Assembly (NCBI GenBank): GCA_017511805.1
Contig: JAFWJA010000015.1
Coordinates: 323,098 to 387,097 of the forward strand
Source of the DNA: Bacilli bacterium
Lineage (GTDB): Bacteria; Bacillota_I; Bacilli_A; RF39; UBA660
Reading direction: 5' to 3'
DNA length: 64,000 nt
Position 1 is the first letter of the stretch. Each line of letters opens with the position of its first letter. Shown piece after piece: positions 30,565 through 61,000 of the stretch. The notes under the pieces are model-generated. The model was not told the origin of the DNA and searched no databases. It was given only the letters and a program-made list of their open reading frames with translations. Both the position numbers and the translations under genes were made by a program.

Positions 30565-30652
30565 TTTTTACTAATTTAGTGTAAAATGTTGCTTTTTTTA
30601 TTTATTTTTGATAAAATTAGTTAAGTTGAGACCCATTAGGAGGTGAAAGTAT

Positions 30653-30895: not shown

Positions 30896-30900
30896 AAATC

Positions 30901-30931
30901 AAATATCTTAAATAGATATTTTTTTTATTTT
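30901..30931 (+). terminator. Weak AT-rich hairpin plus T-run after rpsT.
   Basis: AAATATCT-taaat-AGATATTT followed by TTTTTTATTTT. Confidence 0.4.
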
Positions 30932-30957
30932 CGTGTATACTTATATTAGGTGAATTT

Positions 30958-31875: not shown

Positions 31876-31906
31876 AAAAAGAGATTATTAATCTCTTTTT
31901 TCTATG
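31874..31906. terminator. Bidirectional terminator between the transglutaminase-like gene (+) and miaA (-).
   Basis: AAAAAAAGAGATTAT-TAATCTCTTTTTT palindrome. Confidence 0.5.
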
Positions 31907-34896: not shown

Positions 34897-35754
34897 TTAT
34901 TTATCTTTTTCTATTTTTTCTTGTTCATCTATATATTTATATTTTAGATTATTATTTGAATTAATTATAGTTTTCCCTAAGTTCTTTTCAATATTTTCTC
35001 TTGCAGCTTTAGAAGCACTTCCACCCATTTTAGCTATTATTTGATTTTGTTTTAAACCTTGCGGGTTATGTTCTTTAACAAGTTCCCTAGTAGCAGCTTC
35101 ACCCAGGTCAGTTAATATTACTTCAAGATCAGACATATTATCTCTTAAAGATTCTTTTCTTATACCTTTAAATTCTTTATATTCTTTAGCAGTCATACCT
35201 GACCATTCTTTATAAATATCATTTGTAAGAATAGCATATTCTACTCTATCTTTAACTCCATGTTCTTCCCAAGTTTTAGTTAATTTTTTTCTATTTATAA
35301 TAGCTTTAATTCTAGCTTCAATCCATTCTAAAGAATAACCTTTTTTTAAGTAAAAATCTACCATTTCATCAATTCCTATAGATGGATCAAAAACTTCATC
35401 AACTTTTTGTTTTCCTAATTTCGCTAACCATAGCTTAAATGGTTCTGCTTTTGGTGAAGGGACTGACTCAATTAATCTAAATATTCCTTCAGTATCTAAA
35501 GTATCTGTCAAGTATTTCTTACCATCCTTAGAAGATTTTAATTTCAGTTGTACACAATTAGTGTACAACTCACTTCCCTCTTCTGTTAATCTTCTTTTTA
35601 ACATATTCCAATAATTTCTTGGATTAGTACTTTCAGTTAACGCTGCAATCACATCTACCACACTAAAATAATATTCTTCCTCCTCTTTATTCCAAATACT
35701 TCTTATTTCTTTTCCTTCAAATAAATTTGTAATTGTTTCTAGTTTGTTTTTCAT
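34897..35754 (-). CDS. Bro-N domain protein of the DinD (DNA-damage-inducible protein D) type; phage-derived antirepressor-like.
   Basis: N-terminal ...LFEGKEIRSIWNKEEEEYYFSVVDVIAALTESTNPRNYW matches the Bro-N signature. ~285 aa, like DinD. Confidence 0.5.
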   Translation of the reverse strand: MKNKLETITNLFEGKEIRSIWNKEEEEYYFSVVDVIAALTESTNPRNYWNMLKRRLTEEGSELYTNCVQLKLKSSKDGKKYLTDTLDTEGIFRLIESVPSPKAEPFKLWLAKLGKQKVDEVFDPSIGIDEMVDFYLKKGYSLEWIEARIKAIINRKKLTKTWEEHGVKDRVEYAILTNDIYKEWSGMTAKEYKEFKGIRKESLRDNMSDLEVILTDLGEAATRELVKEHNPQGLKQNQIIAKMGGSASKAARENIEKNLGKTIINSNNNLKYKYIDEQEKIEKDK

Positions 35755-41757: not shown

Positions 41758-41832
41758 ATATTCACCTTCTTTAGTAAAAAAGCATCTAATTTCATTGAAA
41801 TTAAATGCAATTTTCTTTATTCTATCATATTT

Positions 41833-42489
41833 TTATTTTTTAGTAAAACTATAGTAAGTAGCAGTATTCATATTAGCAACATCTAAATATGTATTATTTT
41901 TAAGAATAAATCCATAAAATGGTGTGTGTTTATAATTAACTTCTTTTTCTGCTCCATTATATATTAACTTATCATAATTTATATCTATAACTACTAAATT
42001 ACTTTCATCATATTTACTATTTCTATCAAATAAACCTTCTAATTCTTCTTTAGTAACACCATATGAAGATAAATCATCTGTTAAAAATTCAAGAGCATCA
42101 GATCCCATATAGAATTTATAAGTACCTGTATAATAATTATCATCATGTACTCCTTCGTCTCTATACCAATAAAGTCTATCATCACCAAATACCATTTCTG
42201 ATTCATCACCCGCAATCCAAGTAGTATCTTTTAATATATTATTACTTGAACCACCTTTATTATTACTAAATAAATTAATCAATAAAAATGTTAGTGCTGT
42301 TATAAAACCTATACCTACAATTAGTAAAAGTATTTTTAAAAACTTATTACTTTTATTTTTAACTGGTTGTGTTATAGGTGCTTCAGGTATAGCAACTGGT
42401 TTAACTTCTTCAGTAACTATCTGATTACCACAACTAGTACAAAATACTGTTCCTTCCTCTACTTTATTTCCACACTTATTACAAAACAT
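41833..42489 (-). CDS. Zinc-ribbon (CxxC...CxxC) / single-TM / extracytoplasmic-domain protein; hypothetical. It is the first gene after the SipW/TasA-like cluster.
   Basis: MFCNKCGNKVEEGTVFCTSCGN, then TM LLLIVGIGFITALTFLLINLF. Confidence 0.45.
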   Translation of the reverse strand: MFCNKCGNKVEEGTVFCTSCGNQIVTEEVKPVAIPEAPITQPVKNKSNKFLKILLLIVGIGFITALTFLLINLFSNNKGGSSNNILKDTTWIAGDESEMVFGDDRLYWYRDEGVHDDNYYTGTYKFYMGSDALEFLTDDLSSYGVTKEELEGLFDRNSKYDESNLVVIDINYDKLIYNGAEKEVNYKHTPFYGFILKNNTYLDVANMNTATYYSFTKK

Positions 42490-42539
42490 AAAACACTCTC
42501 CTTTTATTATATATTAACAAATAATTAATTTATATTCAA

Positions 42540-43661
42540 TTACTTTCCCTTTAACTTTACAGCAGGATACGCTATATAAGGTATTCTTAATATCACTTTT
42601 CCGTATACTTTATTGGGTTTTACATACTTATTATCGGAAGTATTATTCATATCCCCTTTAGTGATATATGTTTTATCACTATTTACTTTAATAATTCTAT
42701 GGATTATTATTCTATCATTATCATCATAATACGCAATTACATCATTTTCTTTTAAGTTCTCTTTATCAACATATTTATTAATTATTACTGCATCTCCTAT
42801 ATTATAATTTGGAGACATAGATGCAGTTTCTATACCTATCATTTTAAATGGTCCAATACCAAATATTAATAAAACTAGTATTAGAATAATACCTAAGAAT
42901 ACATAATCTGATTTTTTTACTTTCCTATTTTTTTCTTCTTTTACTACTAGTACTTTTGAGGTAGATATAAGCATTGAAAATGGTAATATAAGTAATAATA
43001 ATGAATTAATATGATCATTTATATCCGGTACAACTGGTACTATATAAATATATAATACTGTTACTAATCTATATATCATACTAGCCTTAAAGTTATTTGA
43101 AGTATATGTTAAATATGATAACGCTATATTATTTAAAACAGTTGGTAAGAATGATAAAGTTATAAAATTAAATATAGTTTCTATATTATTAAATGAATCA
43201 AATCTTATTAATAAGTTAGTATCAAATATAATAAGTACTATTGTTAAAAGAGTTATATACTTTTTATTATCTTTATCTGCACTAATAAACATATATCTAA
43301 ATAGTTCTATACAAATATAAATAACCAGTATAAATATACTATTTTTAAATATATCTATTATGTTAATTGAATATGAGTTCTTAAGGAAACCTGTAATAAA
43401 ACCTATTAAATAATATATTAAAAAGAATAACAATAATTTAATAACAACATTTTTTATTATCTTTTTATTAGTATCATTATTAATAGTTTTTCTATACCCT
43501 AGTAATTTATATCCAAGAAATAATAAAATAAGACAAAAAACAGAAGTTAAACATTCGTTAAACTTCAATAAGTATTTACATATTAAAAATCTATGAATAA
43601 TAGTATATAGTAATACTAATATTAGTAAAATGTTATAACTTCTTTTTTTCATAATTATCAC
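42540..43661 (-). CDS. Polytopic membrane protein (about 8 TM) fused to a catalytically intact C-terminal SipW-type (S26B, ER/archaeal-type) signal-peptidase domain.
   Basis: C-terminal IETASMSPNYNIGDAVIIN ... NDRIIIHRIIKV ... ITKGDMNNTSD aligns with SipW SGSMEP ... VTHRIV ... KGDNN (Ser, His, Asp). The N-terminal ~270 aa are multi-pass membrane helices. Paralogous to 45227-46372. Confidence 0.6.
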   Translation of the reverse strand: MIIMKKRSYNILLILVLLYTIIHRFLICKYLLKFNECLTSVFCLILLFLGYKLLGYRKTINNDTNKKIIKNVVIKLLLFFLIYYLIGFITGFLKNSYSINIIDIFKNSIFILVIYICIELFRYMFISADKDNKKYITLLTIVLIIFDTNLLIRFDSFNNIETIFNFITLSFLPTVLNNIALSYLTYTSNNFKASMIYRLVTVLYIYIVPVVPDINDHINSLLLLILPFSMLISTSKVLVVKEEKNRKVKKSDYVFLGIILILVLLIFGIGPFKMIGIETASMSPNYNIGDAVIINKYVDKENLKENDVIAYYDDNDRIIIHRIIKVNSDKTYITKGDMNNTSDNKYVKPNKVYGKVILRIPYIAYPAVKLKGK

Positions 43662-43664
43662 TTT

Positions 43665-44204
43665 CTAGTTTTCAATATAATTTAGTTCTATTCCTTTTTC
43701 TACTGTAAATGGAGTTGTACCTCCTAAATTAGGTAGATATTCTATTTTAACTCTTATAGTCTTTTCTCCATCTTTATTTAAAGTACTACCTACTGAAGGT
43801 AATCCTTCCATAGTATAATCTATATATGGGGTATCAATAATAGTACTATCTTCTGTACCAGTTAAATTAATAGAATCTAGTATAGCATTCATAGTACCTG
43901 AATTCTTTACTTTAACAGTAAATTCATAGAAATTACCTGGTTCATTTAATGTAATAACAAACGATAATTTATTTGGATGTTCTGGATCTATTCTTACATA
44001 ATTATTATTATCATTAGTAAATGATCCAGATGTAACAGATATATCTTTAAAAGAAATATCCCATCTTACTCCCCCAACATTTACATTTGCATCTATATTT
44101 AAAGATGCCATTAGTTTAGAATATCCTAAAGATATTCCACCTATTAAAACAATAAATAAAATTATGAAGTAATATCTATATTTGTATACAATACTTTGTT
44201 TCAT
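43665..44204 (-). CDS. TasA/camelysin-like secreted beta-sandwich protein with a SipW-cognate-like N-terminal signal peptide (paralog 1 of 3).
   Basis: N-terminal RYYFIILFIVLIGGISLGYSKLMASL. Core LNEPGNFYEFTVKVKNSGTMNAILDSINLTG resembles the TasA/CalY dlkPGDsvkkeFxlxNxGsL motif. Paralog of 44241-44807 and 46381-47061. Confidence 0.5.
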   Translation of the reverse strand: MKQSIVYKYRYYFIILFIVLIGGISLGYSKLMASLNIDANVNVGGVRWDISFKDISVTSGSFTNDNNNYVRIDPEHPNKLSFVITLNEPGNFYEFTVKVKNSGTMNAILDSINLTGTEDSTIIDTPYIDYTMEGLPSVGSTLNKDGEKTIRVKIEYLPNLGGTTPFTVEKGIELNYIEN

Positions 44205-44240
44205 ATAAGCACCTCTTTCATATAGAAAAAAGCTAATTAA

Positions 44241-44807
44241 TTAGCTCCTATTTTGAACATAATCTAGTTCTATAGTTTTAGTAAATGTGTAATCTGATCC
44301 TGGTAACTCTTGTGCTGTTATATCAAGAGGATACTCTACTCTAATAGTTACAGTATTTTTATTAGCTGCACCTACATTTAGTACGTCTCCTACTGATGGC
44401 ATACCAGTTACAGAATAATCTAGATATGGTATTTCTGCTATTTGAGCAGGTGTTAATCCTGTTTCTCTAATTGCATCTAATTTAGCAGGTAATGTTCCTT
44501 CATTTACTATATCTACTGTAAATTCATAGAAATCACCTGGAGCATTTAATGTAACTGTATAAGTAACTTTAGTATCATCATTTGCATCTATTACGGCAGT
44601 ATTATTACCTGAATTTAAATATGAACCTTCTGTGACTTGTATATTACTAAAATGTACAATCCATTCTGTCTTACTTATTTTAGTATTACCATTTATTTGT
44701 AATGTTGTTTGAAGTGCAGAATAACCTAAACTAACTCCTACTAACAAAAGCAAAAAAACTGGTATTAAAAACTTTTTATTTAATAATATATTTTTCTTCT
44801 CTCTCAT
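44241..44807 (-). CDS. TasA/camelysin-like secreted protein (paralog 2 of 3).
   Basis: NKKFLIPVFLLLLVGVSLGYSALQTTLQ signal. LNAPGDFYEFTVDIVNEGTLPAKLDAIRETGL core. Confidence 0.5.
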   Translation of the reverse strand: MREKKNILLNKKFLIPVFLLLLVGVSLGYSALQTTLQINGNTKISKTEWIVHFSNIQVTEGSYLNSGNNTAVIDANDDTKVTYTVTLNAPGDFYEFTVDIVNEGTLPAKLDAIRETGLTPAQIAEIPYLDYSVTGMPSVGDVLNVGAANKNTVTIRVEYPLDITAQELPGSDYTFTKTIELDYVQNRS

Positions 44808-44844
44808 ATATTACTCCTACAATAATATAATTATATCAAATAAT

Positions 44845-45174
44845 CTAATTTTTTTTAAGTATAAAAGTATAAATTTCATCATTATTTTTTACATAAAATT
44901 CACACTCTTTACTATTCATTATATAAAATATTGGTTTTTTTTCTCCAAACTTAACATTTACTAAATCATCAAAGTATTTAGCTTTAACTATTTTTTTATT
45001 TTTAGTATCTATTTTTTTAGCTAATTCTACTAAACAATAATCATATAATTTAAATATTTTAGTAATACTATTTAAATATGGATCTTTACTAGAACTAGTT
45101 ATTAATAGTAATAAAGATATTATTAATAAAACTATTATTACAAACGAAAAAGATATTTGCTTCATAAAAAGCAA
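44845..45174 (-). CDS. Small single-TM protein, paralog of 47825-48151 (both have an (E/H)EC(E/I)F motif).
   Basis: N-terminal TM ISFSFVIIVLLIISLLLLI. ...SKECEFYVKNNDEIYTFILK compares with ...EHECIFVIEDKYNNLICIVK. Confidence 0.4.
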   Translation of the reverse strand: MLFMKQISFSFVIIVLLIISLLLLITSSSKDPYLNSITKIFKLYDYCLVELAKKIDTKNKKIVKAKYFDDLVNVKFGEKKPIFYIMNSKECEFYVKNNDEIYTFILKKN

Positions 45175-45226
45175 TATTATTAATGATATTGTTAATATAA
45201 TTGATGTAATTAAATAATACTTAGTC

Positions 45227-46372
45227 TTATTCGTTTAAATCTCCTCCTACTAAATTCTTAAACCATATAGTTGGATATGCAATTTTACCTATTCTAAAAT
45301 CTACATATTTACCTAATACACTTTCTTTAGATATTTCTTTATATGTTTCTTTTTTATCTTGATCTATTTCTTTAGTAACATAGATCTTACCATTTTCTAC
45401 TTTAGTTATTTTTTCAATAACTATTTTATTATTTTCTTTGTACGCTACTATATCATCTATATGATAATCTTCATATGATACCTTTTGATTTATCATAATA
45501 GCGTCACCCTTATTAATACCACTTATTGTACTCTTTTCTACTCCAATTAAGTAATATTTAAAGAATCCTGATATTAATCCTATTACTATAGTAAAGAATA
45601 TAATTAGTACTATATCTATTACTAATCTAACTATACTTATATTCTTTTTATCTTTATCAAAATTATTAATATATCTATAAGAATATATAAATATTAATGA
45701 AGGTAAAACTATATTACAAATAGATGTTAAATAGTTACCTAACATAGGTTTATAAGTACAAATATAAGTATATAAACATAATGGTATTACATATACAATA
45801 CATGGATAATAGCCTACTTTCTTAGTTAAATAAGTAAGCATTATATTTTTAATAACAATTGGAAGCATTGTAACTGTAATATAAATAAATATATTTTTAG
45901 CAGTTATATCAAATCTATATATATTTAGTATTAAATCAAATATAATTATTAAGAATGTCATAAAGTAGATAGTACTCTTATTATCTTTATTATTACTTAC
46001 ATAATTATATCTAAAGAATTCTAAACATAGTACTGATATAAAAGGCATAATACTATTTTTTAATATAGAGAAAAAATCGCTAGAAAAAACATCTCTACCA
46101 TAACCAGTAAATATACCAAGTAAATATATTACTGAAAAATATATTAATAAACCTACTGCAACCAGTTTAATTATCTTTTTATTTAAAGTACTAAATTCAA
46201 ATATTTTAAAATCATATATAATATAACTAATAAGAGCTATAGTTAGTATAAATATTGCACTTATAATTGATGAATAACCTTGAAAAAATGTAAATACAAC
46301 TGAAAAATATAAAATTATAAAACTAATAAAAGATATAATAAACAACCTATTTTTATTCTCTATTGAATTCAT
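45227..46372 (-). CDS. Paralog of 42540-43661: polytopic membrane domain plus a SipW-like domain in which all three catalytic positions are substituted (predicted pseudo-peptidase).
   Basis: Aligned segments: EKSTISGINKGDAIMIN (catalytic Ser becomes Thr, Pro becomes Gly). KIVIEKITKV (His becomes Glu). VTKEIDQD (GD(N/M)N becomes EIDQ). The TM domain conserves KNSI..CxE(L/F)FRY, NKDNK, IIIFD, LPxVxxNIxL(S/T)YLT. Confidence 0.55.
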   Translation of the reverse strand: MNSIENKNRLFIISFISFIILYFSVVFTFFQGYSSIISAIFILTIALISYIIYDFKIFEFSTLNKKIIKLVAVGLLIYFSVIYLLGIFTGYGRDVFSSDFFSILKNSIMPFISVLCLEFFRYNYVSNNKDNKSTIYFMTFLIIIFDLILNIYRFDITAKNIFIYITVTMLPIVIKNIMLTYLTKKVGYYPCIVYVIPLCLYTYICTYKPMLGNYLTSICNIVLPSLIFIYSYRYINNFDKDKKNISIVRLVIDIVLIIFFTIVIGLISGFFKYYLIGVEKSTISGINKGDAIMINQKVSYEDYHIDDIVAYKENNKIVIEKITKVENGKIYVTKEIDQDKKETYKEISKESVLGKYVDFRIGKIAYPTIWFKNLVGGDLNE

Positions 46373-46380
46373 TTTTTCAC

Positions 46381-47061
46381 CTACTTCTCTATATATGTTA
46401 CTTTATATGTTAGATTTAATTCCTGATCTGTATCAGGTAAATCTTCTACTTCTATATCTTCTAAATACTCTATTTCTAGATGTATTTTTTTCTTTTCACC
46501 TACTAATAAAGTATCTCCTTCTTTAATAGTAGTTCCATCTTTATAAGTTACTTTATATTTAATATATTTCATTTGAGTAGAATTAAGACCAGTTAAAACA
46601 GTATCATATATTTTTGCATCTATATTACCATTATTAACAACATCTACATCAAATGAATATTTTTCACCAGGTACTCTTAAATATATAGTATAGTTTACTT
46701 CAGTTTTATTACTTAAAATATGAGCATCAGTTATTGCTTCAATAGAATCAGCATCTACTTCAAGATTTTCAAATTCTATTTGCCAATTTATATTAGAAGG
46801 TTCTATTACTGGTACACTATCTTTTCTTGTTGGAGTACTAGAACTAGATCCTCTATTATTACTTGTATCAGATTTATCATCTTTTTTATCATCAGTCTTC
46901 TTATCATCTGTAGTAGGATTATCTGTTGGTTCTAAATATTTATTGTTATTCATTTTAACGCCAAAATTACTTGCTAAAGATGCATACATAAACGTAATTA
47001 CTATTAACAATAATATAAAGAATATTGGATAAAAACGACCTTTTTTATTATCATTATTCAT
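46381..47061 (-). CDS. TasA/camelysin-like secreted protein (paralog 3 of 3) with an extra low-complexity D/K/S-rich linker after the signal peptide.
   Basis: RFYPIFFILLLIVITFMYASLASNF signal. LRVPGEKYSFDVDVVNNGNIDAKIYDTVLTGL core. Confidence 0.5.
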   Translation of the reverse strand: MNNDNKKGRFYPIFFILLLIVITFMYASLASNFGVKMNNNKYLEPTDNPTTDDKKTDDKKDDKSDTSNNRGSSSSTPTRKDSVPVIEPSNINWQIEFENLEVDADSIEAITDAHILSNKTEVNYTIYLRVPGEKYSFDVDVVNNGNIDAKIYDTVLTGLNSTQMKYIKYKVTYKDGTTIKEGDTLLVGEKKKIHLEIEYLEDIEVEDLPDTDQELNLTYKVTYIEK

Positions 47062-47124
47062 GCTATCACCTATTATTAATATAATAACATATTTTAAGTC
47101 AAAAAAAAAGCAAAATTGCTTTCT

Positions 47125-47835
47125 TTAATCTATATTATCAATAAGTAATTTATCATTTTTAATAGTATATGTTACTTTTATTTCTCCATCTACTTTTCCA
47201 TACTTATTTATATTGTTATCATCTATGAATTTTTTAATATTTTTAACACTACCTTCTCCATTTAAATACTTATTTAAATCTTTAATATCTATAATAGCAT
47301 CAGTATCTTGATTTAAACCAGAATAATAATTTAAAACATCATATGGATTATCTACTACTAGTTTTTTAAAAGTAGAAACATACTTATTAGTAATATTTTT
47401 ACCTATACTACTTTGACTATATTTAATAATCTTTTTAGAAGCTATATCCTTTTTAGTCAAAACATTATTATATTTATACTGATTTATTTCATGAGTAATT
47501 CCTTCTTCTGCCATCTTACTAGTAATACCTATTTTTTCTAATTTATTAATATTATAATCCACATTAAAATAGTTATTAATAGTGTTTAAAATTTCATCAT
47601 CAGTAAAAGTATTCTTATTCTCTTTATCACTTAAATACTTAATAGCAAAACTAATATATTTACCTTTATCATCAGTATCTACTACTTCATCTAAATAGTC
47701 TCCTATTTCACTATTAAATTCATTTATTTTAACACTTTCTAAACTAGATAATCTTCTATTAACAAAGAATAATACTAGACCTGCAACTACTAATAAAACT
47801 ATTACTATTTTAAATACCATTGTCTTATTTTTCAT
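47125..47835 (-). CDS. Signal-anchored extracytoplasmic protein, paralog of 48194-48997.
   Basis: N-terminal TM. Shared core: KYISFAIKYLSDKENKNTFTDDEILNTINNYFNVDYNINKLEKIGITSKMAEEGI versus KFILFALKYHYYQEDKNTLTSTEISDFINDIFDIEMNPKDVKNIGVSPIMAESGV. Confidence 0.45.
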   Translation of the reverse strand: MKNKTMVFKIVIVLLVVAGLVLFFVNRRLSSLESVKINEFNSEIGDYLDEVVDTDDKGKYISFAIKYLSDKENKNTFTDDEILNTINNYFNVDYNINKLEKIGITSKMAEEGITHEINQYKYNNVLTKKDIASKKIIKYSQSSIGKNITNKYVSTFKKLVVDNPYDVLNYYSGLNQDTDAIIDIKDLNKYLNGEGSVKNIKKFIDDNNINKYGKVDGEIKVTYTIKNDKLLIDNID

Positions 47836-48151
47836 ACTCTACCTCTTTTACTATACATATTAAATTATTATATTTATCTTCAATAACAAAAATGCACTCA
47901 TGTTCTTTTAATTCATATATTATTTTCTTATCTAATTCATAACTAATTTTAATTATATCATCAACATTTTTTAAATATATATTCTCTTTATCTTTCAATT
48001 TATAATTATCTTTTTTTATTAATATAGAACTATATGTTTTTATTATATTATTTATATATCTTTTATAATCTTTTTTAATATAATTTTTATATATTAAATA
48101 AAGAATAATTATAACTAATAATGTAACACCTAATATTATATATTTAATCAT
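47825..48151 (-). CDS. Small single-TM protein, paralog of 44845-45174. Its start overlaps the downstream gene by 11 nt.
   Basis: N-terminal TM IILGVTLLVIIILYLIY. Overlap 47825-47835. Confidence 0.4.
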   Translation of the reverse strand: MIKYIILGVTLLVIIILYLIYKNYIKKDYKRYINNIIKTYSSILIKKDNYKLKDKENIYLKNVDDIIKISYELDKKIIYELKEHECIFVIEDKYNNLICIVKEVEYEK

Positions 48152-48193
48152 ATTAACACCATAATAATTATACCATTTTTAAAAAGAAAAAAT

Positions 48194-48997
48194 CTACTTT
48201 ATTTCGTAGATTTTTAATTTATCATTATCACCAATTGTATAAGTAATATAAACAGTATCTAGTTTTTTAGCACATTTACTTAAATCAAAGTCACTATTAT
48301 TTAAGAAATACATTATCTTATTATAATCACCTGTTTGTAAATATTCTTTTAAATATGATACATCTATCATATCTTCTTCTTTTTTATCTATATTATATTC
48401 TAATATATAGTTAAACAATTCTAATGGATTTTCTATTAAATATTTAGTATATTTAACTTTATATTTAGATTTAGAAGATTTACTTATGCTATCTATTTTG
48501 TAATAAATAACTGATTTAGTTTCTAATTCTCTTTTATTAGTATTATCTATAGAAATAGTATATGAATCATTATCACTATTATATATAACTCCTGATTCTG
48601 CCATAATAGGACTTACACCTATATTTTTTACATCTTTTGGATTCATTTCTATATCAAATATATCATTTATAAAATCAGATATTTCTGTACTTGTTAATGT
48701 ATTTTTATCTTCTTGATAATAATGATATTTTAATGCAAATAATATGAATTTATCATTCGAATCACTATCGGTATTCTCTATTTCATTAATATAGTTAACA
48801 AAGGGAGTAGTTTCTTTTATTATCTTGTTCTTTTCTATATCTGAGACACTTCTTGTTACTAAGAAATATACTAGTGTAGATACTAGGAACACTAGTATTA
48901 GTATTCCTAGTACTACATAGTTAATATGTTCTTTTATATACTCTTTGTTACTAATCTTTTTTATAAATTGTTTTATGTTGTTAAATATCTTTTTCAT
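48194..48997 (-). CDS. Signal-anchored extracytoplasmic protein, paralog of 47125-47835. It is the first gene downstream of the giant gene, 8 nt away.
   Basis: Short cytoplasmic N-terminus, TM VVLGILILVFLVSTLVYFLV, and a ~220-aa external domain. Confidence 0.45.
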   Translation of the reverse strand: MKKIFNNIKQFIKKISNKEYIKEHINYVVLGILILVFLVSTLVYFLVTRSVSDIEKNKIIKETTPFVNYINEIENTDSDSNDKFILFALKYHYYQEDKNTLTSTEISDFINDIFDIEMNPKDVKNIGVSPIMAESGVIYNSDNDSYTISIDNTNKRELETKSVIYYKIDSISKSSKSKYKVKYTKYLIENPLELFNYILEYNIDKKEEDMIDVSYLKEYLQTGDYNKIMYFLNNSDFDLSKCAKKLDTVYITYTIGDNDKLKIYEIK

Positions 48998-49005
48998 TTT
49001 GCCTC

Positions 49006-52000
49006 CTACTTCATGAATTCTAGGATACAGTAATTATATCCTGTCAATTCATCTATCTTAGTAACAACTTGATAGTTCTTATCTGTTGCTGTTGTTATAT
49101 CTCCGTTTACTCTTGGTGATGTAGAACCAATTATATAACCATCATAGAATTTAAATGTTCCATTTCCTTGGCTGATACCTATACCAGTAGTAGTTCCAAT
49201 AGCTTCTATATATGGATTAGTAATTGATACATCAGCATTTTCTGTACCTCTACCATCTTCTATACCAAGTACTACTGATCCTCTTGTAATATAGATACCA
49301 TATGCTATATTACCTGAAGCATGTATTGATCCAGTTTCTATAGTTATTTCTCCGCCTTCTGCATATAATCCATAAGATGCACTTTCTGTATCATGAACTG
49401 AAATATTAACATTATTTAATACTGGAGAACCATCTACAGAATATACACCACCAGCATATTTAGAATTATATGTTTCTATAGTTCCACCAGTCATTCTAAT
49501 TGAACCAGATGTACTATATAAACCATATGCATTATTAGAATTATATGCCTTAATAGTAGCATTAGTAACATTAGATGTATTTTCACTATTACTATCTATT
49601 GCTGAGGCAATTTCCGCTCCTGAAACAGTAAACTTATCGCGAGTAGAATTTAAAATACTTGTATTATGAATAACATTAAGTTTTTTATTTCTTTCATTAT
49701 TAAGATTATGAGTTAATATATATTCATTATCAGTTGATATTAATGTACCACTGTTATCAATAGTTGATATTGTAATATCAGTTTCATAGTAATTATTAGC
49801 ATTAGTGTGACTAATAGTAGAATTACTAATTGATAATATTCCAGTATTAGTAATAGTAACTTCATTGCCTTCAGAAGTTGTTTGATATGTAATAGTAGTT
49901 CCATCAATAGTAGTATTACCAGCATTATCTATAAACTTAGTAATAGTACCACCATTAATTATTAGTTCTGCATTTGTCTTAGCATTACTAATTTGACCAT
50001 TAATATTAGTATTAGTAATTGTTGTTCTTTCAGTTGAGTACTTATAATAAGCAATTTGTCTTGATGTTAATGTACAATTTGAAATATTTTCTAGATCTGA
50101 TGAATTACTATAGATAGCATATAGATCACCTTTAATAGTAGAATTTGTTAATGTCATTTTACCATTGTTAATTATACCTATATTATCTACATCTAAATCA
50201 ATATTATCTATAGTCATAATACCATTAGTATCATTCTTAATCGCAGTATCTCCTATTATTTCAATATTACTTATATTTAATGTTCCATTATTTATAATAG
50301 ATGATTCTGATGATCTAGAATTTATAATAGAATTTGTTAATTCACTAGTAATTGTTAAATCACCGCTATTATTAATTGGTTTAAATGTTCTTAAAGTATG
50401 ACCATTTAGATCTAGTGTTAATCTTACTCCATCATATATATAAGATTCATGAGATAAAATTGTATCATCTAACAATTCAATAACATCATCATCATTTACT
50501 TCATTAAATGCTTGTTGAATATTATTATATGTCTTATCTTGTGTCTTATTATGGATAGTATAAGAAGATTCTACTAAGTACGCTATATTCGAATAATCTT
50601 GAGTATAGTTATCTTCAGATTCATATGCATACATAGTTTTATTAATTAGTCTTGGATTTCCAATAAATCCAGTACCACCACCTGCTGGTCCATAATATCC
50701 TGCTGCTCCTCCATAGAAACCACTTCCACCACCAGACATATAATTGTTTGAATTATTAGTTTTATTAGAACCAAATCCAAATGATGGATATATTTGACCT
50801 GTGTTAGCATTTGTCATAGTAGCATATCTACACTTAGTATATGTTCCTGGTCTATTTGTTGTAGCACCATTACCATAGTTTTCACATACACCATTCATTG
50901 ATTTTGCATTACCTGCAGTAAGTCCTCCAGCATGTCCTCCGTCACCAGAGTAATCTGGATATAGTTCGTGAGTAGAAGAACCTCCTCCACCACCTGCAAC
51001 TATTAAGATTGCATTTTCGGCACCTGTTAAATATCTTAATGTGTTAGGATTTGTAGCTATTGATGTTGCTCCTCCACCACCAGCATAAACTCCGTTATAC
51101 TTCATAGTTGAAGAGTTATATTGCCCTGCTGCATATCCACCACCATTATATCCATATGTTGTACTATAAGTCATTTTTCTACATGATTGTGTAGTACATC
51201 CATCTGGTGCTTCAACATCAACACTTTGTCCTTGACCACCTACTGCTATATATAATGTCTCATTCTTATCAAGATATACTTCACCTACTGAATAGCCTCC
51301 ATAACCTCCAGTATTTGAATTACCTAAATATGAAGTATTTCCTCCTTGAGCTCCCCATACCTCAAGTTTATATTTACCTGGGCAATAGATATCAAGAGTT
51401 TGCATTCCATTAGTATGATCATATAAATAAACATTATTTACTAAACTTTCACAATATGCATCTGAATAAGCATATTTTGCATATAATATCATTGAATTTT
51501 GTACTAATGTTTCTGGTGTAACTTTAGTAGAGAAATCTGAATCTATATACCAACCTTTAAATATTAGGTTACTATCTGTATTAATAGGTTCAGGAATGTT
51601 TCCAAGTGCATCACCACGATTATAAATTAATGTATTATCCTCAATTGTTCCAACACTTGATATTAGATTTACTTCAATTTGTTTAGCATTAGCTTTTCTC
51701 TTAATATAAGTAATCTTAGCATATCCATCACCAGTGTTACCAGTCATTGTATATGTACCATCATATGAAGGTACTTTTGAACCACCACCTAATAGTGTAG
51801 TATCGTACATATAATATTTGGATCCTACTAGATATCCAGATGGTTTATATGATGTTGCTGTTAATACGTAGCCAGATCCTCCACCGCCACCTTGTTGGGC
51901 CATTGAAGAACCGCCTCCGCCGTACCAGCCACCGCCTCCGGCTCCACCGACATATGATCCACCTTGTCCAAATGAACCATTTCTACCAGCACCAGTTTGA

Positions 52001-55000
52001 GTACCTCCGTCACCAGCGTCGGACCAATAACCATTCCAGCCACCACCTTTAGAACCAGATTCGCCACCACCGGCACCTCCACCAGATGCTGTTCCAGGGC
52101 CTCCGCCTCCACCAGCGACAATAATTCTAGAATATAAACTACTTGTAAGTCTAATATCAGTAGCTCCTCCACCCATTATTGTACCAGGGCCAGAGCCTCC
52201 TCCATTATAACCTCCATTAGTACCAGAAGTTCCTACATATACGAATAATTCTTGACCTAAAGATAAATCTATATAACCAGCAGAATATCCACCATTTGCT
52301 CCACCTTGAGCTCCCCATACTTCTAATTTATATGTACCTGTACACATAGAAGTAAATTTTTGAGAAGATTTAGTAGGTAAATATGTATATTCTCTTCCTA
52401 TATAGTCTTCACAGTTAATATTTTCATATATTTGATCATCTGGATCAATACTAACTGAATTATCTTCATATGTTATTCTTGCATAACCATTACCTTCTTT
52501 AGCAGTATTAGCAATTGGTTCTGCACTAACATCTTCTGTATTTCTATTTTTATACTTTTGTAAGTACATTTGCATTTCATCAGTTGTTTCATATACTTCA
52601 TATCCTTCTCTAATAATATCTATACTATCAGGAGTTCCTTTTATATATCCTTTTAATATACCAGAATAGAAATATACTTCTCCATCTAATCTATATACAC
52701 TATATAGACCACCTTCAATAGAAGGATTTTCAATAGAAACAGAATCATTTTCATTTCCTATTACTACAAGTGAATCTTCATTATTTTGATATATACCATA
52801 TAATTCACCTATTATAGAACCAGTATTAAATTGTAATGATTTTCTACTAGTTTGTGTATTACCTATATATACACCAATGTTTTTAGAACTAATATTTGTA
52901 TTATTAAGTACCATATTTGATTCATAAGTTGCTGCATATATACCATAACCAGTATTATTACCAGTAGTAGTAATATCAACATTAGTTAAATTTAGGTCAC
53001 CACTATATACATTTATACCTGTATCTTTAGCAGTAATACTTGCATCTGTAATAGTTAAACCAACCATTGTATAGATACCTGTACCTACTTCATTAGTTAT
53101 TTCTATATCATTTATATCACATGTTGCATTTGTACCACAATAGATGCCATATTCAGAACCAGATCCTCTAGATATAATAGATACATGATCTATATCTATA
53201 TCACTATAAGCAAAATAGATTCCTGATTGACCAGATTTAATTGATGTATTATATATTTTTACATCATTACGTCTTTCAGCAGTATTCTTACTAGTTGAAT
53301 CATAATATCCTCTTCCAGTTCTTGCAATAAGATCACTTTCATTTATAGTAACTATATTATTACCGTTACCATTATTCATGTATACTGAAGTATAATCGGC
53401 ATTTATTTTTGTATTATAAACGCTAATTGTCGAGTTATATGAATTTGAATAAATACCATATGATCCTTCTAAAGTAGAATCTGTTACATTTAAAGTAATA
53501 TTTTGTCCATTATCAATATAGATAGGATTTGAACTACTTTTAATAGTAGCATTATTTCTTACATCTATAACTGCTCCATTAACATGATTTGATATAGCAC
53601 CATTATAACTTGAGGTAGATAATGTAGAAACAGTTACATATTCTACTGTTAAATTCTTATAATTAGCTACACCACTAGTTTTTATGTTTTGTAAAATACC
53701 ATTTTTAGCTTCACTACTATCTGTAATTATTAAGTTTGAATTGTTTGTAAATGTTTCACTCATAACTAATTTTTTGTTATTTAAATCTAATGTAATATTT
53801 TTACCAGCAGGTATTGTTACTGCATCCGGAACTGAAGCACTTGCTACTACTTTAATAGTACCATTAGCATCTATTGCATCTATAGCATCATCAAAATTAT
53901 CATATCTTTCTCCATCTACTTCTAAGAATCCATCTCTTGATGATAGATAATTTAATACCCAAATATTACTAGCAACATTATATCCAGTCATATGTGCATT
54001 TGATAATCTTGGATTTCCAATATAACCAGATCCTCCACCTCCACCACTATAATCGTTGATTACTGATGTTGATGATTGATCATTTGTTCCACCGGAACCT
54101 CCGCCGTACCAACCTCCGCCTCCGGCTCCACCATAAACTCTATTTTCTACATTTATGGTAGTATCTGCACCTTTACCAAATGTTCCTATTCCTTTTTCAG
54201 GATGTAAGTTATTATGTCCACCTTCAGTTTGTGTACCACCGGTACCATAGTTAGCAAATGTACCTGTATTAACAGAACCATCATTAGCTATATAGCCTCC
54301 TCCTGCTCCTCCAGTACCTCTGTTATAACTTGTAGAGTAATATGAGCCTCCTCCTGCTCCTCCAGCAACTATTAATATTGAATCTTTATTATTTTCTAAT
54401 TCATATAGTTGTCCTGAAGCTGTGGCAATATGTGTAGCTCCTCCACCTGAAACTGATGTAATTTGGTATGAAGACCAATTATTAGTAACTGAACCTCCAC
54501 CATTATATCCACCATCAGCGGTACCAGTTCTACTATTTAAGATTTGTCCTTGTCCTCCAACATTTATATAAAGTGTTTCTCCTTGAGTAAGTTCTATTTC
54601 TCCTTGTGAGTAACCACCTTGTGCTGCAGGGAAATTACTTGTATTTGATGTAGATGTTCCTGCACCCCATACTTCAAGTAAGTATTTACCTGTACATGGA
54701 ACATTAAATGTTTCTTCACCATTAATATATTCATAATCATATACATCGTTTGTATAACATAATCCTATATCTTCACCTAAATATGTAATTCTAGCATAAC
54801 CATTACCAGTTTTAGCAACATCACTAGTTGCTGCACTAGATACTTTAGTTGTACTATAAGTTCTTGTTTTTAAATCTTCTTCAGATGATGAACTTTCTTC
54901 AACAATATCATGATTTTGTCTTAAGTTAACAATAGTACCAGAATATCCATATTTACGTCCTTTTAGAACACCATTATAGAAACTAGTAACAGCACCAGTA

Positions 55001-58000
55001 TATTGAACTCTAACACCATATTCTTGTCCAATAAATACAGGATCCACTTTATTTAATTCTGCATCTTTATCACCTATAGTCACTTTAGCATTAGTTCTAA
55101 TATCTAATCCTGAAACTGTACCTTCATAAGTACCACTATTAAATGTGTAATTACCTCCCGCATATACATCAACGGCAGTTCCTACACCTTTATAAGTACC
55201 ACCATTAAATACTACAGTACCAGAACTATATAAATATAAACCAGTAGATTTTTCTGATTCTACATTACAATTATTAAATGTACCATTATTCGTTCCACTA
55301 GATAGATATATAGCATTATAAGTATTAGCAACAAAACTAGAATTTTCAAATAAGAAGTTAGTAGTTGATCCTGAAGAATAGTTATAATAAGCATAGTTTT
55401 TACCAGTTAAAGTAGAATCTTTAATATTTAAAGTAGATGAACTTCCACTAGTAAAGTTAAAATAAATACCATATGAATTATTAGAAGTTAAAGTACTATT
55501 ATCTATAGTTAAATTAATTCCTTTTCCATAATTATATACTACTTCGTTATTTGATGTTAATTCTGAATTATCAATAACAACTACTTGATTATAATTAGTA
55601 TTTATAAGATTAGCAGTAGTAGTTATTTTTGAATTTAGAATATTAACTTTACCACCAGTTGTAGTAGAAGTTATTACATTTTTACTAGAATTAACAACAA
55701 TTCCATCCATAGTGAATGTACCTTTGTTTTCAATAACTCTAGTTAAACTATTTGTTATTTTTCCAGTTTTATCATCACTATTATCTACAATAGTAAATGT
55801 TCCTTTATTAACAAACTCACTTCTCATAGATAATGTATTACCATCAAGATCTAATGTAATATTTTTACCTAATGGTATTACTGATTGCTCTGATAATTCT
55901 ACATCTTTAATAACATAAATAGTTCCTTCTTCATCAATAGCATCTACAGCATCTGCAAATGAATTAAAGTATTCATCTCCAACTCTTAAGAACACTTCTC
56001 TATCTTCTAGATAGTTTCTTACATAAGTTCTTATTAATGCTTTTACATTATATCCATACATTATTCCATTTTCAATTCTTGAATTAGCTATGTATCCAGA
56101 ACCACCACCAGAAGTTACAGTTACAGATTTAGTACTACCACCACCGTAGTAGCCTCCTCCACCTGCATTACCCATAGTTCCATAACTATCAGCACCTCTA
56201 CCAAATGATCCTTTACCTTCTTCAGTAGAACTACTTTGATCAAATCCTGGACCTACTTGTGTACCTCCAGTACCATAGTATATAGATGGTGTACCACCCA
56301 TATATCCACCACCGGAACCACCATAATGTTCATTATATGAACCATTACCATATATAGTTCCACTAGCTCCACCACCACCAACTATAAGAATTGAATCTTT
56401 GTTATCTTCAAGTTCACTTAATAATCCTGGTGCTGTTGCAATATGAGTTGCTCCACCTGATCCATATATTGTTAATCTAGTGCTACTAGAACCAGTGTAT
56501 GTATAATCATTAATGTAAATATCTCCGCCACCATTATATCCACCTTTAACAACATATGTACCTGATACACTATTTTTATATTGACCTTGTCCACCTACTG
56601 TTATATATAAAACTTCATTTTCAGTAAGTTCTATTTCACCATATGAATATCCTCCATATGATCTATTACTATATGAAGCTGAACCCCATACTTCTAATTT
56701 ATATCTTCCAGTACATGGTACTGTAAATTCTGCTGTATTACCTGTATAACCATAAGTATATTCTTGATTATTTGTACAAGTTTCATTAGTTTCACCAATA
56801 TAAGTTATCTTAGCATAACCTGGACCTGATTTAGCATAATTTGATGTAGCTGTTTGACTATAATTAGTAGTAGAATTAGTATTCCAAATATCTGCTTCTG
56901 GAATAGTTTCTATTTCTTCAGCAACTACCTTACCTCTTCTTAATTCTCCAAGAGACATATTAAAACCATAAGTAGAACCTCTTAATAAACCATTATAGAA
57001 ATTAATTATTGTTCCACTAATAGCATATACGCCATATATTCCTCCAGAAATATAAGGATCTTCTTTAGAGTATTCTTTACTCTTATCTCCTATATTTACT
57101 ACTGTTACATTTGAAGAAGTACGAATACCATAGGATTTACCTACTATAGAACCACTCATAATGTATGCTGTATAACCACCAACATTAATACCTGTTCCTT
57201 CAACATCAATATCACAATCATAAACATAAACGTTATTAGAACCAATATTAATACCTGTACTTGATGATCCTCCTCCAGAAACATTAACATTTGTTAAAAT
57301 GTATTTATAATTAGTATTTGAACTTAGTGTGATTCCTGTATAACTAGTATTTTTTGCAAGATTTATAGTTACATTATTTATTATTGCGTCTTTTTCAACG
57401 TTACATGAACTTAATATAACACCATCTGTATTATTAGTATTAATAGTTACATTTTCTAATACTAATTCATATGCAGTACCAATTTCTATTGGATGTTCAC
57501 TAACACTAGTTGAAGTATGTTCAAAAGTACCTCCATGAATATATATATAATTACCATTAGAAGCAACAAGGCCAAATGTTTTTCCTTTAAATTCTCCAGC
57601 ATTAATTGTTAGAGTATTTGGACAATCTTGATACTGATTAGTGCTTTTTGTAGTATATGCTCTAACATTTATTGCACTTTCATTAGTAGAAGTAACTTTA
57701 CCATCATTTATTGTAATTGTATTACCTTTTAGATTTTGAGCATCCAAATATGAATAAATACCAGTTTTATATGATTTAATTTCACCATCATTCATTGTGA
57801 AATTAACTTTACTATAATGTAGATTAATACCATATATATCTTGATTATTTGATGTATCAATAACAACTGTACCACCAATAGTTAAATTTTTTGGTGAATC
57901 AATACCAGAAATAGTACCTGATTCTAATGTAAGTGTCTCAGTTTGATTATTATATATTGCATAGTTATTATCTGATTTAATTAATGTATCTCCTGATGTA

Positions 58001-61000
58001 GTAACAGTACCATTTGTATAAATAGTATAGTTATCTATAGTTGTTAATTCTGCATCATTAAGTATTAAATCTCCATTATTTAAAACTGCATAATTATCAG
58101 AGTTCTTTTCATGGAACTTAATATTTTCTAATGTTAATGTACCATTATTATTAATAGTAGAAGCACTATTAATAATAGTATTAGTTTCTTCAGAATTATA
58201 TATTTTAAGAGTACCATTATTTGTAAATGTATCTCCTATTGAGAAACTATGACCATTTGTATTAATAAGAATATTAGCATTTTCACTTACATTAAGTGGA
58301 TATGTTGCTTCAAAGTTATCTCTTCTTATAAATATTTCATATCCAGTCTTAGTAGCAGTATCAATAGCATCTTGTAATCTAAAGAAATATTGTGTTCCTC
58401 CTACTCTAGTTTCTGCAACTGCATTGTCAGGATTACCAATTAGGTAAACTCTTTGGCAATCCTTATCAATGTTATAGTAGTTATATATAAAGTATCCTTG
58501 TGGTACTTTATCAACTTTACCATTAAGTGCTACATCACCTTCAATGTATCCATCATAGAAGTTAAACCTACCACTTTGTTCTAGACCAATATCAGTACCT
58601 ATGATTTTGACATTATCTTCAATCATATCTCCATCATTATCACCTATTGTAAGATTTCTTCTATTATCAAGAGCAGTTCCATTAGGATTTTCAATAGTAC
58701 CATTTATAAGAGTTAAATCACCATTATTGATTACTTTACCTGTAATAGTATAGTCATTTAAATCTAATGTAACTGTTTTTGTATTAGTTGATTCTGCTTC
58801 TGTTACATTCTTAATTAATTCAATAGTATCTCCATCTTTTGCTTCATCAAATGCTTCTTGAACTGATAAGAAGTAATCCGTATCTATTCTAGCAACTGCA
58901 TTCTCATCAATTTCCCATATAGCAGTAACTGTTATATCTTTTAATCCTACTGTTATTACATATGGATCTTGCTCTGTACCAGTTCCAGATAGAACACTTG
59001 GATCATTTACTTCCCATCCTAAGAAGTTGCATCCACGCTTTGTTGGAGTTAATAATGTATATGTTTCTTCATATTTCTTATAGATTTCTCTTATATCTTT
59101 ACTTCCATCATATACACCATAATTAGGATTTATTGTAATAATTAAATCTGTTTCTTTATTTCTAATTGCTTCTTCAGATAAACTTTGTAGATATTTCTTT
59201 TCACTTTGAATATCTTGTTCTGTTCTTATTCTTGAGTAATCCGCAATTTGATTTATTTCTCCTTCAACCGCTTTAGTACCTTCTATGTAACCATCGTACA
59301 TAATTAAATTACCTTCATTAACTATAGTAGTAGTTTCACTAATTATTCTTATATTAGAACTTGATACATTACCATCATTTTCTCCTAGAATAACAGTACC
59401 ATAATTAATTATTGTATTCTTATCAAAGTTTTGAAGAGAGCCATTATATACATTAAATGTACCACTATTAATTAATTTAGTTGTAATACTATGTTTATTT
59501 AAATCTAGTGTTACATAACCACCAGTAGGTATTACTAAATCTTCAGATACAGATTTTAATAATTTAATTGTATCTCCTTCTTCACACTTATCTATTGCAT
59601 CTTGTACAGTTGAATAATAAACTCCATTTAATAATGCAACTGTATCTCCTTGATAGTCATGACCCATGTACTCAAGTAATGCATATTCAAATCCAGTATT
59701 TTCATCAACATATGTAGTAACTTCGTATTGATATTCAACATTAGTAGTTGTTTCTGGTTTAGCAAATTTACTTGCTTCAATAATACCATCATAGAAGTTA
59801 AATGCACCATTTATCTTTTTAACACCAATACCTCTATCACCTTGTACATAGATTAATGGATCAGTTGTAGATACATCTGCAGTTTCTCCTCCAGTACCTT
59901 CATAATGTCCCATTTCAAATGTACCAGTATTAGCATATACACCATAAGCATTAACTGCTCTTTCTACATCTATCTTACCAGATAATATAGTTGCTTTAGC
60001 ATTAGCGCTATTTGAATATATACCATATGCCACACTACCACCAGTAACATTTATTTCAGAATCTGAAATAGTTATATCGCCAGTACCTTGGTTAGTAATA
60101 CCCCTATATTCATAAGTATTATTTAATGAACCAATATTAATTTTAGAATTATTTTGAATAGTTAAATTCTTAGTATTTAATATAGCTTGCGAATGTTTAC
60201 CAACATCTGATTTATTAACTAAGATATTAGTATTATCTATAGTCATTGTACTAGAGTTACTAATTGCAGTATCTAAACTACTTTGTGATGTAGAACCAAT
60301 TGTATTTGTATAAGTTGATCCTATTAATGACATAGTACCAGTATTAGTAATCTTAGAATTATTAATATTTGAATTCGATACTGTTAATGTACTAGTAGAA
60401 TTTTGAATATTACTATTTATAGTACATGTATCACATGTAGTTTCATTAGTACCAGAATTATAGAATACTCCAGTTAAAGTAGTTCCTGTTATATTAACTT
60501 CTTTATTAGAATTATTATAAATACTATAATTAGTTCCTGTATATGTGCCATTATTAATGGTAAGTGTACTTGTGTTATTTACTGCAATCTTATTAGCTTT
60601 AACTATAGAATTATTTATAGTAGCATTACCAGAATTTGTAATACCAGATACACTATCTACATTAATATTATTTGCATTTAAAGTACCTTCATTATTAATT
60701 ACATAATTAGAAGTACTTGTGTTCTTAAGACTAACATTACTAATATTTAAAGTATTCTTGTTATTAATAATACTAATAGAACCAGATGTCTTAATTGATG
60801 CTTCAGTTTGTGCATCATTTGTAATAGTCATATTACCATTATTAGTGATAGTCTTATTAGCAGATATAGTATATCCTTTAAGATTTAAAGTAAATGTTTT
60901 ATTATTAGGAATAGTTAAATCGTAATATAATGGAACATTTGTTAATAATTCAATTGTTTCATTAGTTCCTACTTCACTAATAGCACTTTGTAGATTACCA

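Follow-up and report, generated by a model that had tools for sequence, protein, structure and literature searches.

What does a compact gene cluster lying directly 3' of a giant adhesin gene build, and does it serve that adhesin? This question is raised by a 64,000-nucleotide stretch of DNA from an uncultured gut Bacilli bacterium (assembly GCA_017511805.1, contig JAFWJA010000015.1, positions 323,098 to 387,097 of the forward strand), referred to below as the window. Ten minus-strand open reading frames (ORFs), spaced from an 11-nt overlap to a 63-nt gap, encode two polytopic membrane proteins (sp373 and sp381), three small secreted proteins (pil179, pil188 and pil226), two signal-anchored proteins (anc236 and anc267), two small one-helix proteins (sm108 and sm109) and a zinc-ribbon protein (zn218). 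The number in each name gives the length of the protein in residues. An earlier sequence-only reading of the window had described them as a SipW/TasA-like fibre cluster made of paralogous gene sets. All ten ORFs were present at exactly the coordinates it gave, and an all-against-all BLASTP comparison confirmed the sets: sp373 matched sp381 (E 4e-39), pil179 matched pil188 (E 1e-35), pil188 matched pil226 (E 5e-16), and anc236 matched anc267 (E 4e-20). The sm108 and sm109 match was weak (E 0.017), and both proteins match the C-terminal half of DUF5305.

The analysis confirmed the cluster as genuine, showed it to be conserved and widespread, and identified it as a divergent relative, in bacteria, of the AbpX and Tafi systems. 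With a probability of about 0.62, it encodes a TasA-superfamily surface-fibre system, closest to the AbpX/Tafi type, whose strand-linked fibre probably carries the giant adhesin. This reading is favoured because of the similarity between the secreted proteins and AbpX, the intact S26 residues of sp373, the gene linkage, and an orthologous giant protein that begins with the subunit module. Homologies, the folds of predicted models, residue states and gene linkage form its observed basis, and from these every mechanistic step is inferred.

Conservation of the cluster

The small secreted subunit proteins and their module were labelled PIL, and a PIL profile was built from 149 sequences. ORFs were called in 80 retained loci, which contained 81 peptidase genes, and were scored with profiles of the window proteins. 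A PIL gene was found directly upstream of the peptidase in 70 of the 81 cases, in one to six tandem copies, and within 8 kb of it in 77. The gene directly downstream was DUF5305-like in 61 cases, and a PIL-fusion protein of at least 300 aa was encoded near 26 of the peptidases. The order PIL, fused peptidase, DUF5305 was nearly universal across the 80 loci. Comparison of gene neighbourhoods had been proposed earlier as a check on the cluster; this core order passed it, and the zinc-ribbon gene was not conserved with the cluster. Since the gene set is conserved across many genomes, the cluster is not a chance arrangement. When species-representative genomes were scanned, the peptidase proved to have more than 419 relatives, mostly in metagenome-assembled genomes (MAGs) of uncultured gut or rumen Bacilli, 'Mollicutes/Tenericutes' and Clostridia.

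In L023, L045, L060 and L067 the peptidase gene was preceded by a tandem array of four to six PIL-only genes, which suggests antigenic or functional diversification of the fibre subunit. The Firmicute-type cluster was also seen in bins labelled Saccharibacteria, Muribaculaceae, Bacteroidaceae or Paludibacteraceae (among L027, L028, L033, L034, L039, L053, L083, L087 and L090), where mis-binning or horizontal transfer could explain it.

The PIL subunits and their relation to AbpX

Two of the window's subunits are pil188 (188 aa, 44241..44807, minus strand) and its paralogue pil179 (179 aa, 43665..44204, minus strand; PIL profile E 8e-65). In pil188 a signal anchor with a predicted cleavage site after GYS30 is followed by a putative donor strand, ALQTTLQINGNTKIS, and a beta-sandwich. 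The same organisation runs through the family, in which a near-invariant motif has G-Y-(A/S) at positions -3 to -1 and then LxTTLxINGxxxI. The predicted mature proteins are acidic, with isoelectric points of 4.2-4.5. The AlphaFold model of PIL contained a confident beta-sandwich, and residues 33-49 were disordered, so that the strand was left unplaced.

The AbpX fibre subunit of the archaeon P. abyssi, whose sequence was taken from the supplement of bioRxiv 10.64898/2026.01.04.697558, forms a fibril solved by cryo-electron microscopy, and its homologues occur in Thermoproteota, Bacillota and Chloroflexota (bioRxiv 10.64898/2026.01.04.697558). The PIL profile matched AbpX with 21.2 bits, collinearly from the signal peptide to the last strand at the C-terminus, and the best of 2,000 shuffles that kept the signal peptide reached 12.8 bits. 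Mature AbpX alone scored 11.3 bits against a full-shuffle maximum of 5.6, and hhalign comparison of PIL with AbpX gave P 1.9e-4 and 5e-4. The cleavage and donor regions were also similar: AbpX has IGLTYA before the cut and QWSETLSLSATIS after it, compared with ISxGYA and ALxTTLxINGxxxI in PIL. Because the profile score exceeded those of all shuffles and these regions resemble each other, PIL was placed, as judged by sequence, in a probable remote AbpX-like branch of the TasA superfamily and not in the TasA family itself.

Other comparisons agreed with a position outside the TasA family. Among 35 representatives of the PIL family there was one sub-threshold match to Peptidase_M73 (20.2 bits, cut-off 22.5), and a TasA sequence scored 2.9 bits with the PIL profile, which is no similarity. 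The long signal peptides had been described as SipW-cognate in style; none of the three PIL proteins of the window matched TIGR04088, the model of that signal, in an NCBIfam scan at E <= 1. PDB sequences gave no significant match to PIL by single sequence or by profile, and a Foldseek search of the PDB with the PIL model returned generic beta-sandwiches only (E > 0.003). One 480-aa protein from the exhaustive PIL search, P0140, carried three tandem PIL modules; it gave the only sub-threshold matches to Peptidase_M73 (E 5.6e-4) and to the WxL-interacting peptidoglycan-binding domain.

The family is large. An exhaustive profile search found 6,587 representative clusters (50% identity) at E <= 0.001 and 1,499 at E <= 1e-30, and no Pfam model covered the PIL module itself. 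Among the best 150 of the 6,587 matches, the module was nearly always N-terminal and most proteins had 300-1,350 aa. In a sample of 35 of these 150, the passengers behind the module included ALK_LTK glycine-rich domains, BspA-type and other leucine-rich repeats (LRRs), DUF285 and NAGPA; an ALK_LTK_GRD passenger was present in three of the 35.

That most family members carry the module ahead of a passenger domain supports the main rival to a fibre. In this rival, the PIL module serves at the N-terminus as a tag for sorting or anchoring, or as an envelope stalk; the fused peptidase is a sorting protease comparable to exosortase or myxosortase; and the PIL-only proteins are short surface proteins or decoys. 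CPBP-family enzymes are known as sorting proteases, myxosortase being one (PMC11980579). Nevertheless, almost every peptidase gene follows one to six PIL-only genes in tandem, each with a product of 170-240 aa, as is usual for the major and minor subunits of a fibre. The PIL profile also matches a protein whose fibril has been solved, and the CPBP catalytic motifs of the enzyme are degenerate. We consider the tag unlikely.

The giant adhesin as a probable fibre subunit

The fibre reading gained its link to the adhesin from an orthologue of the giant protein. The window holds the 3' 4,997 codons of the giant gene (49006..64000, minus strand), which encode a beta-helix and four ALK_LTK glycine-rich domains (PF12810, E 7e-104). 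Its reading frame is open to the window end, some 698 codons of its 5' part lie outside, and on a longer, 226-kb contig of the same species (L001) the gene encodes 5,695 aa. The start at an internal ATG (63630) in the ORF list is an artefact of the window boundary. Two loci, L013 and L048, overlap on one contig of a sheep-rumen Bacilli MAG, which is the closest genome relative. When merged, they read PIL, active peptidase, DUF5305, two anc genes, a 5,469-aa giant, a variant PIL, a dead peptidase and a short DUF5305. This 5,469-aa orthologue is collinear with the window giant (41% identity over about 2,000 residues), both proteins end in ...YCILEFM at the C-terminus apart from the last residue given for the window giant, and its N-terminus is a full PIL module (residues 11-186, E 2.7e-43). 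Since the orthologue starts with this module, the window giant is, as its sequence relationship suggests, probably a fibre subunit itself, and one that bears the adhesin.

Linkage of the cluster to the giant gene, which the sequence-only reading had pointed out, was real and was conserved in relatives. The giant, the variant PIL and the dead peptidase were syntenic in four lineages at only 38-41% identity, and the orthologous giants of L007, L011 and L048 shared a conserved C-terminus with the window giant. Close relatives contained a four-gene block of PIL, polytopic protein, DUF5305 and PIL, located downstream of giant genes in L007 and L011 and beside two Flg_new proteins in L009.

The last of these loci, whose module has no giant gene, is one point for another rival, namely that the cluster makes a released TasA-like biofilm matrix, polymerised away from the cell, and that the giant is merely co-located or co-regulated. 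TasA and AbpX make matrix fibres and lattices (bioRxiv 10.64898/2026.01.04.697558), and mature PIL proteins are acidic like AbpX. The full N-terminal PIL module of the orthologous giant and the synteny retained in four lineages both argue against a mere neighbour, and we regard the released matrix as improbable, more so than the sorting tag.

Sortase-dependent Gram-positive pili were considered and rejected because no sortase gene was found among the cluster genes in Pfam and NCBIfam scans and no LPXTG signals were seen in the cluster. The PIL proteins lack a C-terminal sorting signal, and the giant ends in ...YCILEFMK, in agreement with the earlier statement that it bears no sortase signal. 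The extreme C-terminus shared by the giants, ...NYQV..E.GY.YC(I/V)LE(F/I)M(K/M/Y), is not an LPXTG signal.

The idea that the fibres display the giant proteins of the window held for one of its two giants, in so far as an orthologue of that one carries the subunit module. The second giant gene (10391-25378, minus strand) encodes a surface protein of 4,995 aa. Besides 14 Listeria-Bacteroides (Flg_new) repeats, this protein has Laminin_G_3 and CarboxypepD_reg domains; an ordinary signal anchor lies at its N-terminus and a membrane anchor at its C-terminus (...IVLILLLIVIVLGLVAIKKKREE). The gene was rejected as part of a similar system, having no PIL module, a C-terminal membrane anchor, and KilA-N, HTH_3 and DUF4097 genes downstream. 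The link of the cluster is thus specific to one giant gene, because the second has neither the module nor such a cluster.

A dedicated signal peptidase fused to a CPBP-like membrane domain

A dedicated S26B signal peptidase, as proposed for this fibre-type cluster, was confirmed in sp373 (42540..43661, minus strand), which passed the TIGR02228 model of archaeal-type signal peptidases with 77.3 bits (cut-off 51.85). The ATG used by gene callers, at 43652, gives 370 aa. Its catalytic residues Ser281, His321 and Asp337 are intact, and in an alignment with human SEC11 the catalytic Ser (ASMSP), the His (IHRI) and the GD motif were all in place. The label SipW-type was right as to the S26B class and went too far as to SipW itself, since sp373 reached 62.4 bits with the SipW equivalog model, whose cut-off is 190, and sp381 also stayed below. 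Ser, His and Asp were retained in 85 of 96 aligned members of the peptidase family.

The AlphaFold model of sp373 (pLDDT 89.5) contained eight membrane helices (residues 2-242), a ninth helix (250-267) and a beta-rich peptidase domain, which corrects the former estimate of about eight helices to eight plus one. The alternating positive loops in sequence and model can be read as an orientation with a cytoplasmic N-terminus and an extracellular peptidase domain. In the predicted model the eight-helix domain has the CPBP (CAAX-protease/Abi, PF02517) fold, and its closest structural match was the non-catalytic SpdC. Glu119 was conserved in 96 of 96 members and Arg122 in 94 of 96, the dead paralogues included; both lie in ELFRY of helix 4, at the motif 1 position. 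Of the CPBP motifs (EExxxR, FxxxH, HxxxD/N) no more was found, and there was no conserved His or Asn at the positions of motifs 2 and 3. Because Glu119 and Arg122 alone are conserved and the His of motifs 2 and 3 is absent, the membrane domain was assigned, as modelled, to a degenerate relative of the CPBP fold; by sequence it is not a CPBP family member.

The domain most likely does not cut. If it were an active intramembrane protease, the substrate would be cut twice, by the CPBP domain in the membrane and by the S26 domain outside. The missing motif 2 and 3 residues and the structural match to SpdC speak against this, as do SpbR and SpdC themselves, which show that degenerate members act as binding partners (PMC12260438). 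Double cutting is accordingly the least probable of the explanations weighed here.

A conserved dead peptidase beside the giant adhesin

The second polytopic protein, sp381 (45227..46372, minus strand), is a paralogue of sp373 with the same CPBP-fold membrane domain and an S26-derived domain, homologous over its full length (33% identity over 345-349 residues). At the catalytic positions, Ser is replaced by Thr and His by Glu, and no S26 model in Pfam or NCBIfam matched the protein. Since the catalytic Ser and His are lost, sp381 is by its sequence a pseudo-peptidase, predicted to be catalytically dead; of the two S26B peptidases counted in the sequence-only reading, one therefore stood. The 11 family members that depart from Ser/His/Asp came from five genomes (the window species, L007, L011, L022 and L048). 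As their sequences indicate, they are a conserved lineage and not a decaying gene. This dead lineage occurs in five lineages, and a giant gene was found upstream of the dead peptidase in all four whose upstream DNA is visible.

Directly upstream of every dead peptidase (L007, L011, L022 and L048) lay a variant PIL, and pil226 (46381..47061, minus strand; PIL profile E 8e-61) is of the same type. The N-terminal motif of the variants is SIAYASLA(I/F)N(L/I)G(I/V)K, and in most of them a Pro-rich or charged linker precedes the sandwich. In pil226 the N-terminal motif is divergent and a low-complexity linker of about 60 aa stands ahead of the beta-sandwich. This protein may serve the fibre as an anchor or adaptor.

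Probable truncated DUF5305 accessories

Judging from sequence, the small proteins sm108 (47825..48151, minus strand) and sm109 (44845..45174, minus strand) are probably peptidase accessories of the DUF5305 (TafG-like) type, cut down to a single membrane helix and the cytoplasmic domain. Both fell short of the PF17231 cut-off of 29 bits: sm108 scored 26.7 bits over model positions 124-212, and sm109 scored 20.5 bits over positions 124-217. In phmmer, sm109 matched a 190-aa DUF5305 protein of L007 (E 2e-12), which itself reached 44.9 bits, and homologues at the equivalent peptidase-adjacent position in relatives passed the cut-off with 44.9, 44.2, 50.1 and 64 bits. The full DUF5305 architecture comprises an extracellular beta-sandwich, two membrane helices and a cytoplasmic domain. 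It was absent from sm108 and sm109, which span positions 124-217 only, that is, one helix and the C-terminal cytoplasmic domain. Full-length DUF5305 proteins of 350-400 aa were present in more distant relatives.

Proposed assembly of the fibre

Taken together, these features can be arranged into an assembly pathway. pil188, pil179 and, by inference, the giant N-terminus would be made with a signal anchor ending in G-Y-(A/S) and be inserted through it. The CPBP-fold domain of sp373 would hold a membrane helix, likely the signal anchor of the substrate, beside the S26 active site, and the enzyme would cleave after G-Y-(A/S), exposing the amphipathic N-terminal strand ALxTTLxINGxxxI. The freed strand would then enter the beta-sandwich of a neighbouring subunit by donor-strand complementation, giving a fibre which the giant adhesin would join through its own PIL module. 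By analogy, the CPBP-S26 fusion may be a single-chain version of the SpbR-SpsB partnership, and the truncated DUF5305 proteins may assist the peptidase as proposed for TafG. A second module of pil226, sp381, sm109 and pil188 would be specialised for the giant adhesin; in it, sp381 might bind the subunit without cutting it, as a chaperone or anchor, in the way suggested by SipA of S. pyogenes pili.

Several observations weigh against this fibre reading. The TasA/camelysin-like cores claimed previously did not hold up, since pil179, pil188 and pil226 had no match to Peptidase_M73/TasA (PF12389) even at E <= 1. The calcium-binding residues W2 and E4 of AbpX are not conserved in PIL, where the positions align to Leu and Thr; for that reason, membership of the AbpX subfamily in the strict sense was rejected. 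The PIL module of the window giant is deduced from the orthologous sequence, its own N-terminus lying beyond the window. The CPBP assignment is drawn from the fold of the predicted model alone, and CPBP sequence models, Pfam included, matched none of 63 peptidase-family members at E <= 1. pil226 and its relatives have a plausible cleavage site between AYA and S in most lineages, so an uncleaved-anchor role for pil226 is not implied by its sequence. Finally, the pathway gives no role to anc236, anc267 and zn218.

A bolder interpretation is that PIL and the CPBP-S26 enzyme define a large and hardly studied system of uncultured gut Bacilli and Clostridia for pilus formation and adhesin display, a class of Gram-positive surface-assembly machinery of its own, beside sortase pili and distinct from TasA, AbpX and Tafi. 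In it the membrane domain would recognise the signal anchor, adhesins reaching more than 5,000 residues would be mounted on the strand-linked fibres by an N-terminal subunit module, and the pseudo-peptidase would have evolved for the giant. We hold this as tentative, with the odds somewhat against it.

Comparison with known systems

The sequence-only reading found that the cluster fitted no system it could name. This no longer applies, as Tafi and AbpX loci combine such subunits with a dedicated peptidase and DUF5305. AbpX loci encode minor subunits and tip proteins together with an accessory of the DUF5305 type, and their dedicated peptidase is described as 'possessing ten transmembrane helices' (bioRxiv 10.64898/2026.01.04.697558). 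Like them, the present cluster has acidic subunits (about 160 aa) whose signal peptide ends in YA and is followed by an amphipathic donor strand, a many-helix dedicated peptidase of the TIGR02228 type, a DUF5305 accessory, minor subunits and larger 'tip' proteins. It differs in that the similarity to AbpX is remote (21 bits), W2 and E4 are absent, DUF5305 is truncated, no SLH or LPXTG anchors and no sortase were seen, and the peptidase has nine helices (ten in the family member P0121). The AbpX preprint contains no report of a pseudo-peptidase paralogue, a CAAX/CPBP fold, or an adhesin of more than 5,000 aa with a subunit module.

In the Tat-fimbriae (Tafi) of haloarchaea, the dedicated S26 peptidase is TafD, and when its gene is deleted TafA is not processed and fibres do not form. 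TafG, a DUF5305 protein, is the proposed partner of TafD, and the tip, adaptor and anchor subunits are modelled as joined by donor strands (PMC11821415, PMC12337348). Tafi, with its TafA/C/E pilins, thus resembles the present cluster in having a strand-donating pilus, a dedicated S26 peptidase for pilin processing and a DUF5305 partner. Tafi pilins are mostly exported by the Tat pathway, while the present system is bacterial with Sec-type signal anchors, and TafD, unlike sp373, spans the membrane with four helices and carries an additional C-terminal domain. Duplicated tafD/tafG pairs exist in some genomes; here one duplicate is catalytically dead. The Bacillus tapA-sipW-tasA operon likewise brings the genes of a fibre subunit, an accessory protein and a dedicated S26B peptidase together, and donor-strand assembly is likely a common principle with it. 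However, SipW is a two-helix membrane protein, TasA carries no fused adhesin, and TapA is absent here.

For the dead paralogue, the nearest precedent is SipA (LepA) of S. pyogenes, a signal-peptidase homologue that is catalytically inactive and without which pili do not polymerise (PMC4049620). SipA is a relative of the Ser/Lys type (S26A), has a single membrane helix and works with sortases, whereas sp381 derives from a Ser/His-type enzyme and has kept the CPBP-fold domain. For the membrane domain, precedents are degenerate CPBP proteins whose partners are enzymes with a single membrane pass: the degenerate CAAX-like SpbR of S. aureus binds and inhibits the signal peptidase SpsB, and SpdC binds SagB (PMC12260438). 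Compared with these pairs, the two partners are one polypeptide here, and there is no detectable sequence similarity.

The general architecture, including a multi-helix peptidase and DUF5305 in bacterial AbpX loci, is already described in the literature of 2025-2026. Three observations are new, as far as found: the membrane domain has a predicted CPBP fold, a lineage of pseudo-peptidases is linked to giant adhesins, and thousands of surface proteins, including adhesins longer than 5,000 residues, use the subunit module as an N-terminal handle. A fibre with an N-terminal subunit module would explain how those thousands of proteins (BspA-type LRR and DUF285 proteins and glycine-rich giants) are displayed in poorly cultured gut and rumen Bacilli and Clostridia, where the cluster and its giant show no sortase or LPXTG signal, and fibres of this kind are barely studied in bacteria. 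The CPBP-S26 fusion would be a natural single-chain SpbR-SpsB, a pairing described so far only in S. aureus. It suggests that the pairing is old and widespread, and it offers a compact model of the way in which signal peptidases acquire specificity for their substrates. The conserved pseudo-peptidase beside the giant adhesin could serve as a natural experiment on the roles of non-catalytic signal-peptidase homologues in fibre assembly.

Remaining genes of the cluster and the window

The remaining genes of the cluster have a narrow distribution. anc267 (48194..48997, minus strand; 267 aa) is a signal-anchored protein with an ectodomain of about 200 aa, and anc236 (47125..47835, minus strand; 236 aa) is its signal-anchored paralogue, whose gene overlaps sm108 by 11 nt. 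Members of the anc family were confined to the window species, L013 and L022, and stood in each case as two tandem genes within a giant-adhesin locus. anc267 had no Pfam match, no PDB profile match and no profile link to PIL or DUF5305. The possibility that anc236 and anc267 supply the missing extracellular half of a split DUF5305 was rejected, as hhalign aligned the membrane helix alone.

The zinc ribbon of zn218 (41833..42489, minus strand), named as such before, scored above the PF13240 cut-off (28.1 bits, cut-off 25) and is followed by one membrane helix and an ectodomain. Its homologues were confined to contigs of the same species, and zn218 is probably co-transcribed with the cluster and is not a conserved part of the system. 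A terminator-like hairpin followed by a T run lies between zn218 and uvrC (41782..41808, minus strand). It is a consensus match only and is the single minus-strand hairpin of this kind in the region, directly 3' of zn218. A promoter scan of the AT-rich region gave 77 sites where 81 were expected and was uninformative.

The window has a G+C content of about 25% and holds Firmicute housekeeping and sporulation genes, namely uvrC, mutL, lepA, hemN, hrcA-grpE and spoIIP. KilA-N and Bro-N genes of the phage or mobile-element type stand amid the housekeeping genes (9471-10325 and 34897-35754, minus strand), and a DUF4116 repeat protein is encoded at 32817-34562. The sole stretch with positive GC and AT skew, 30001-32000, coincides with a plus-strand gene (30958-31875) in an otherwise minus-strand window.

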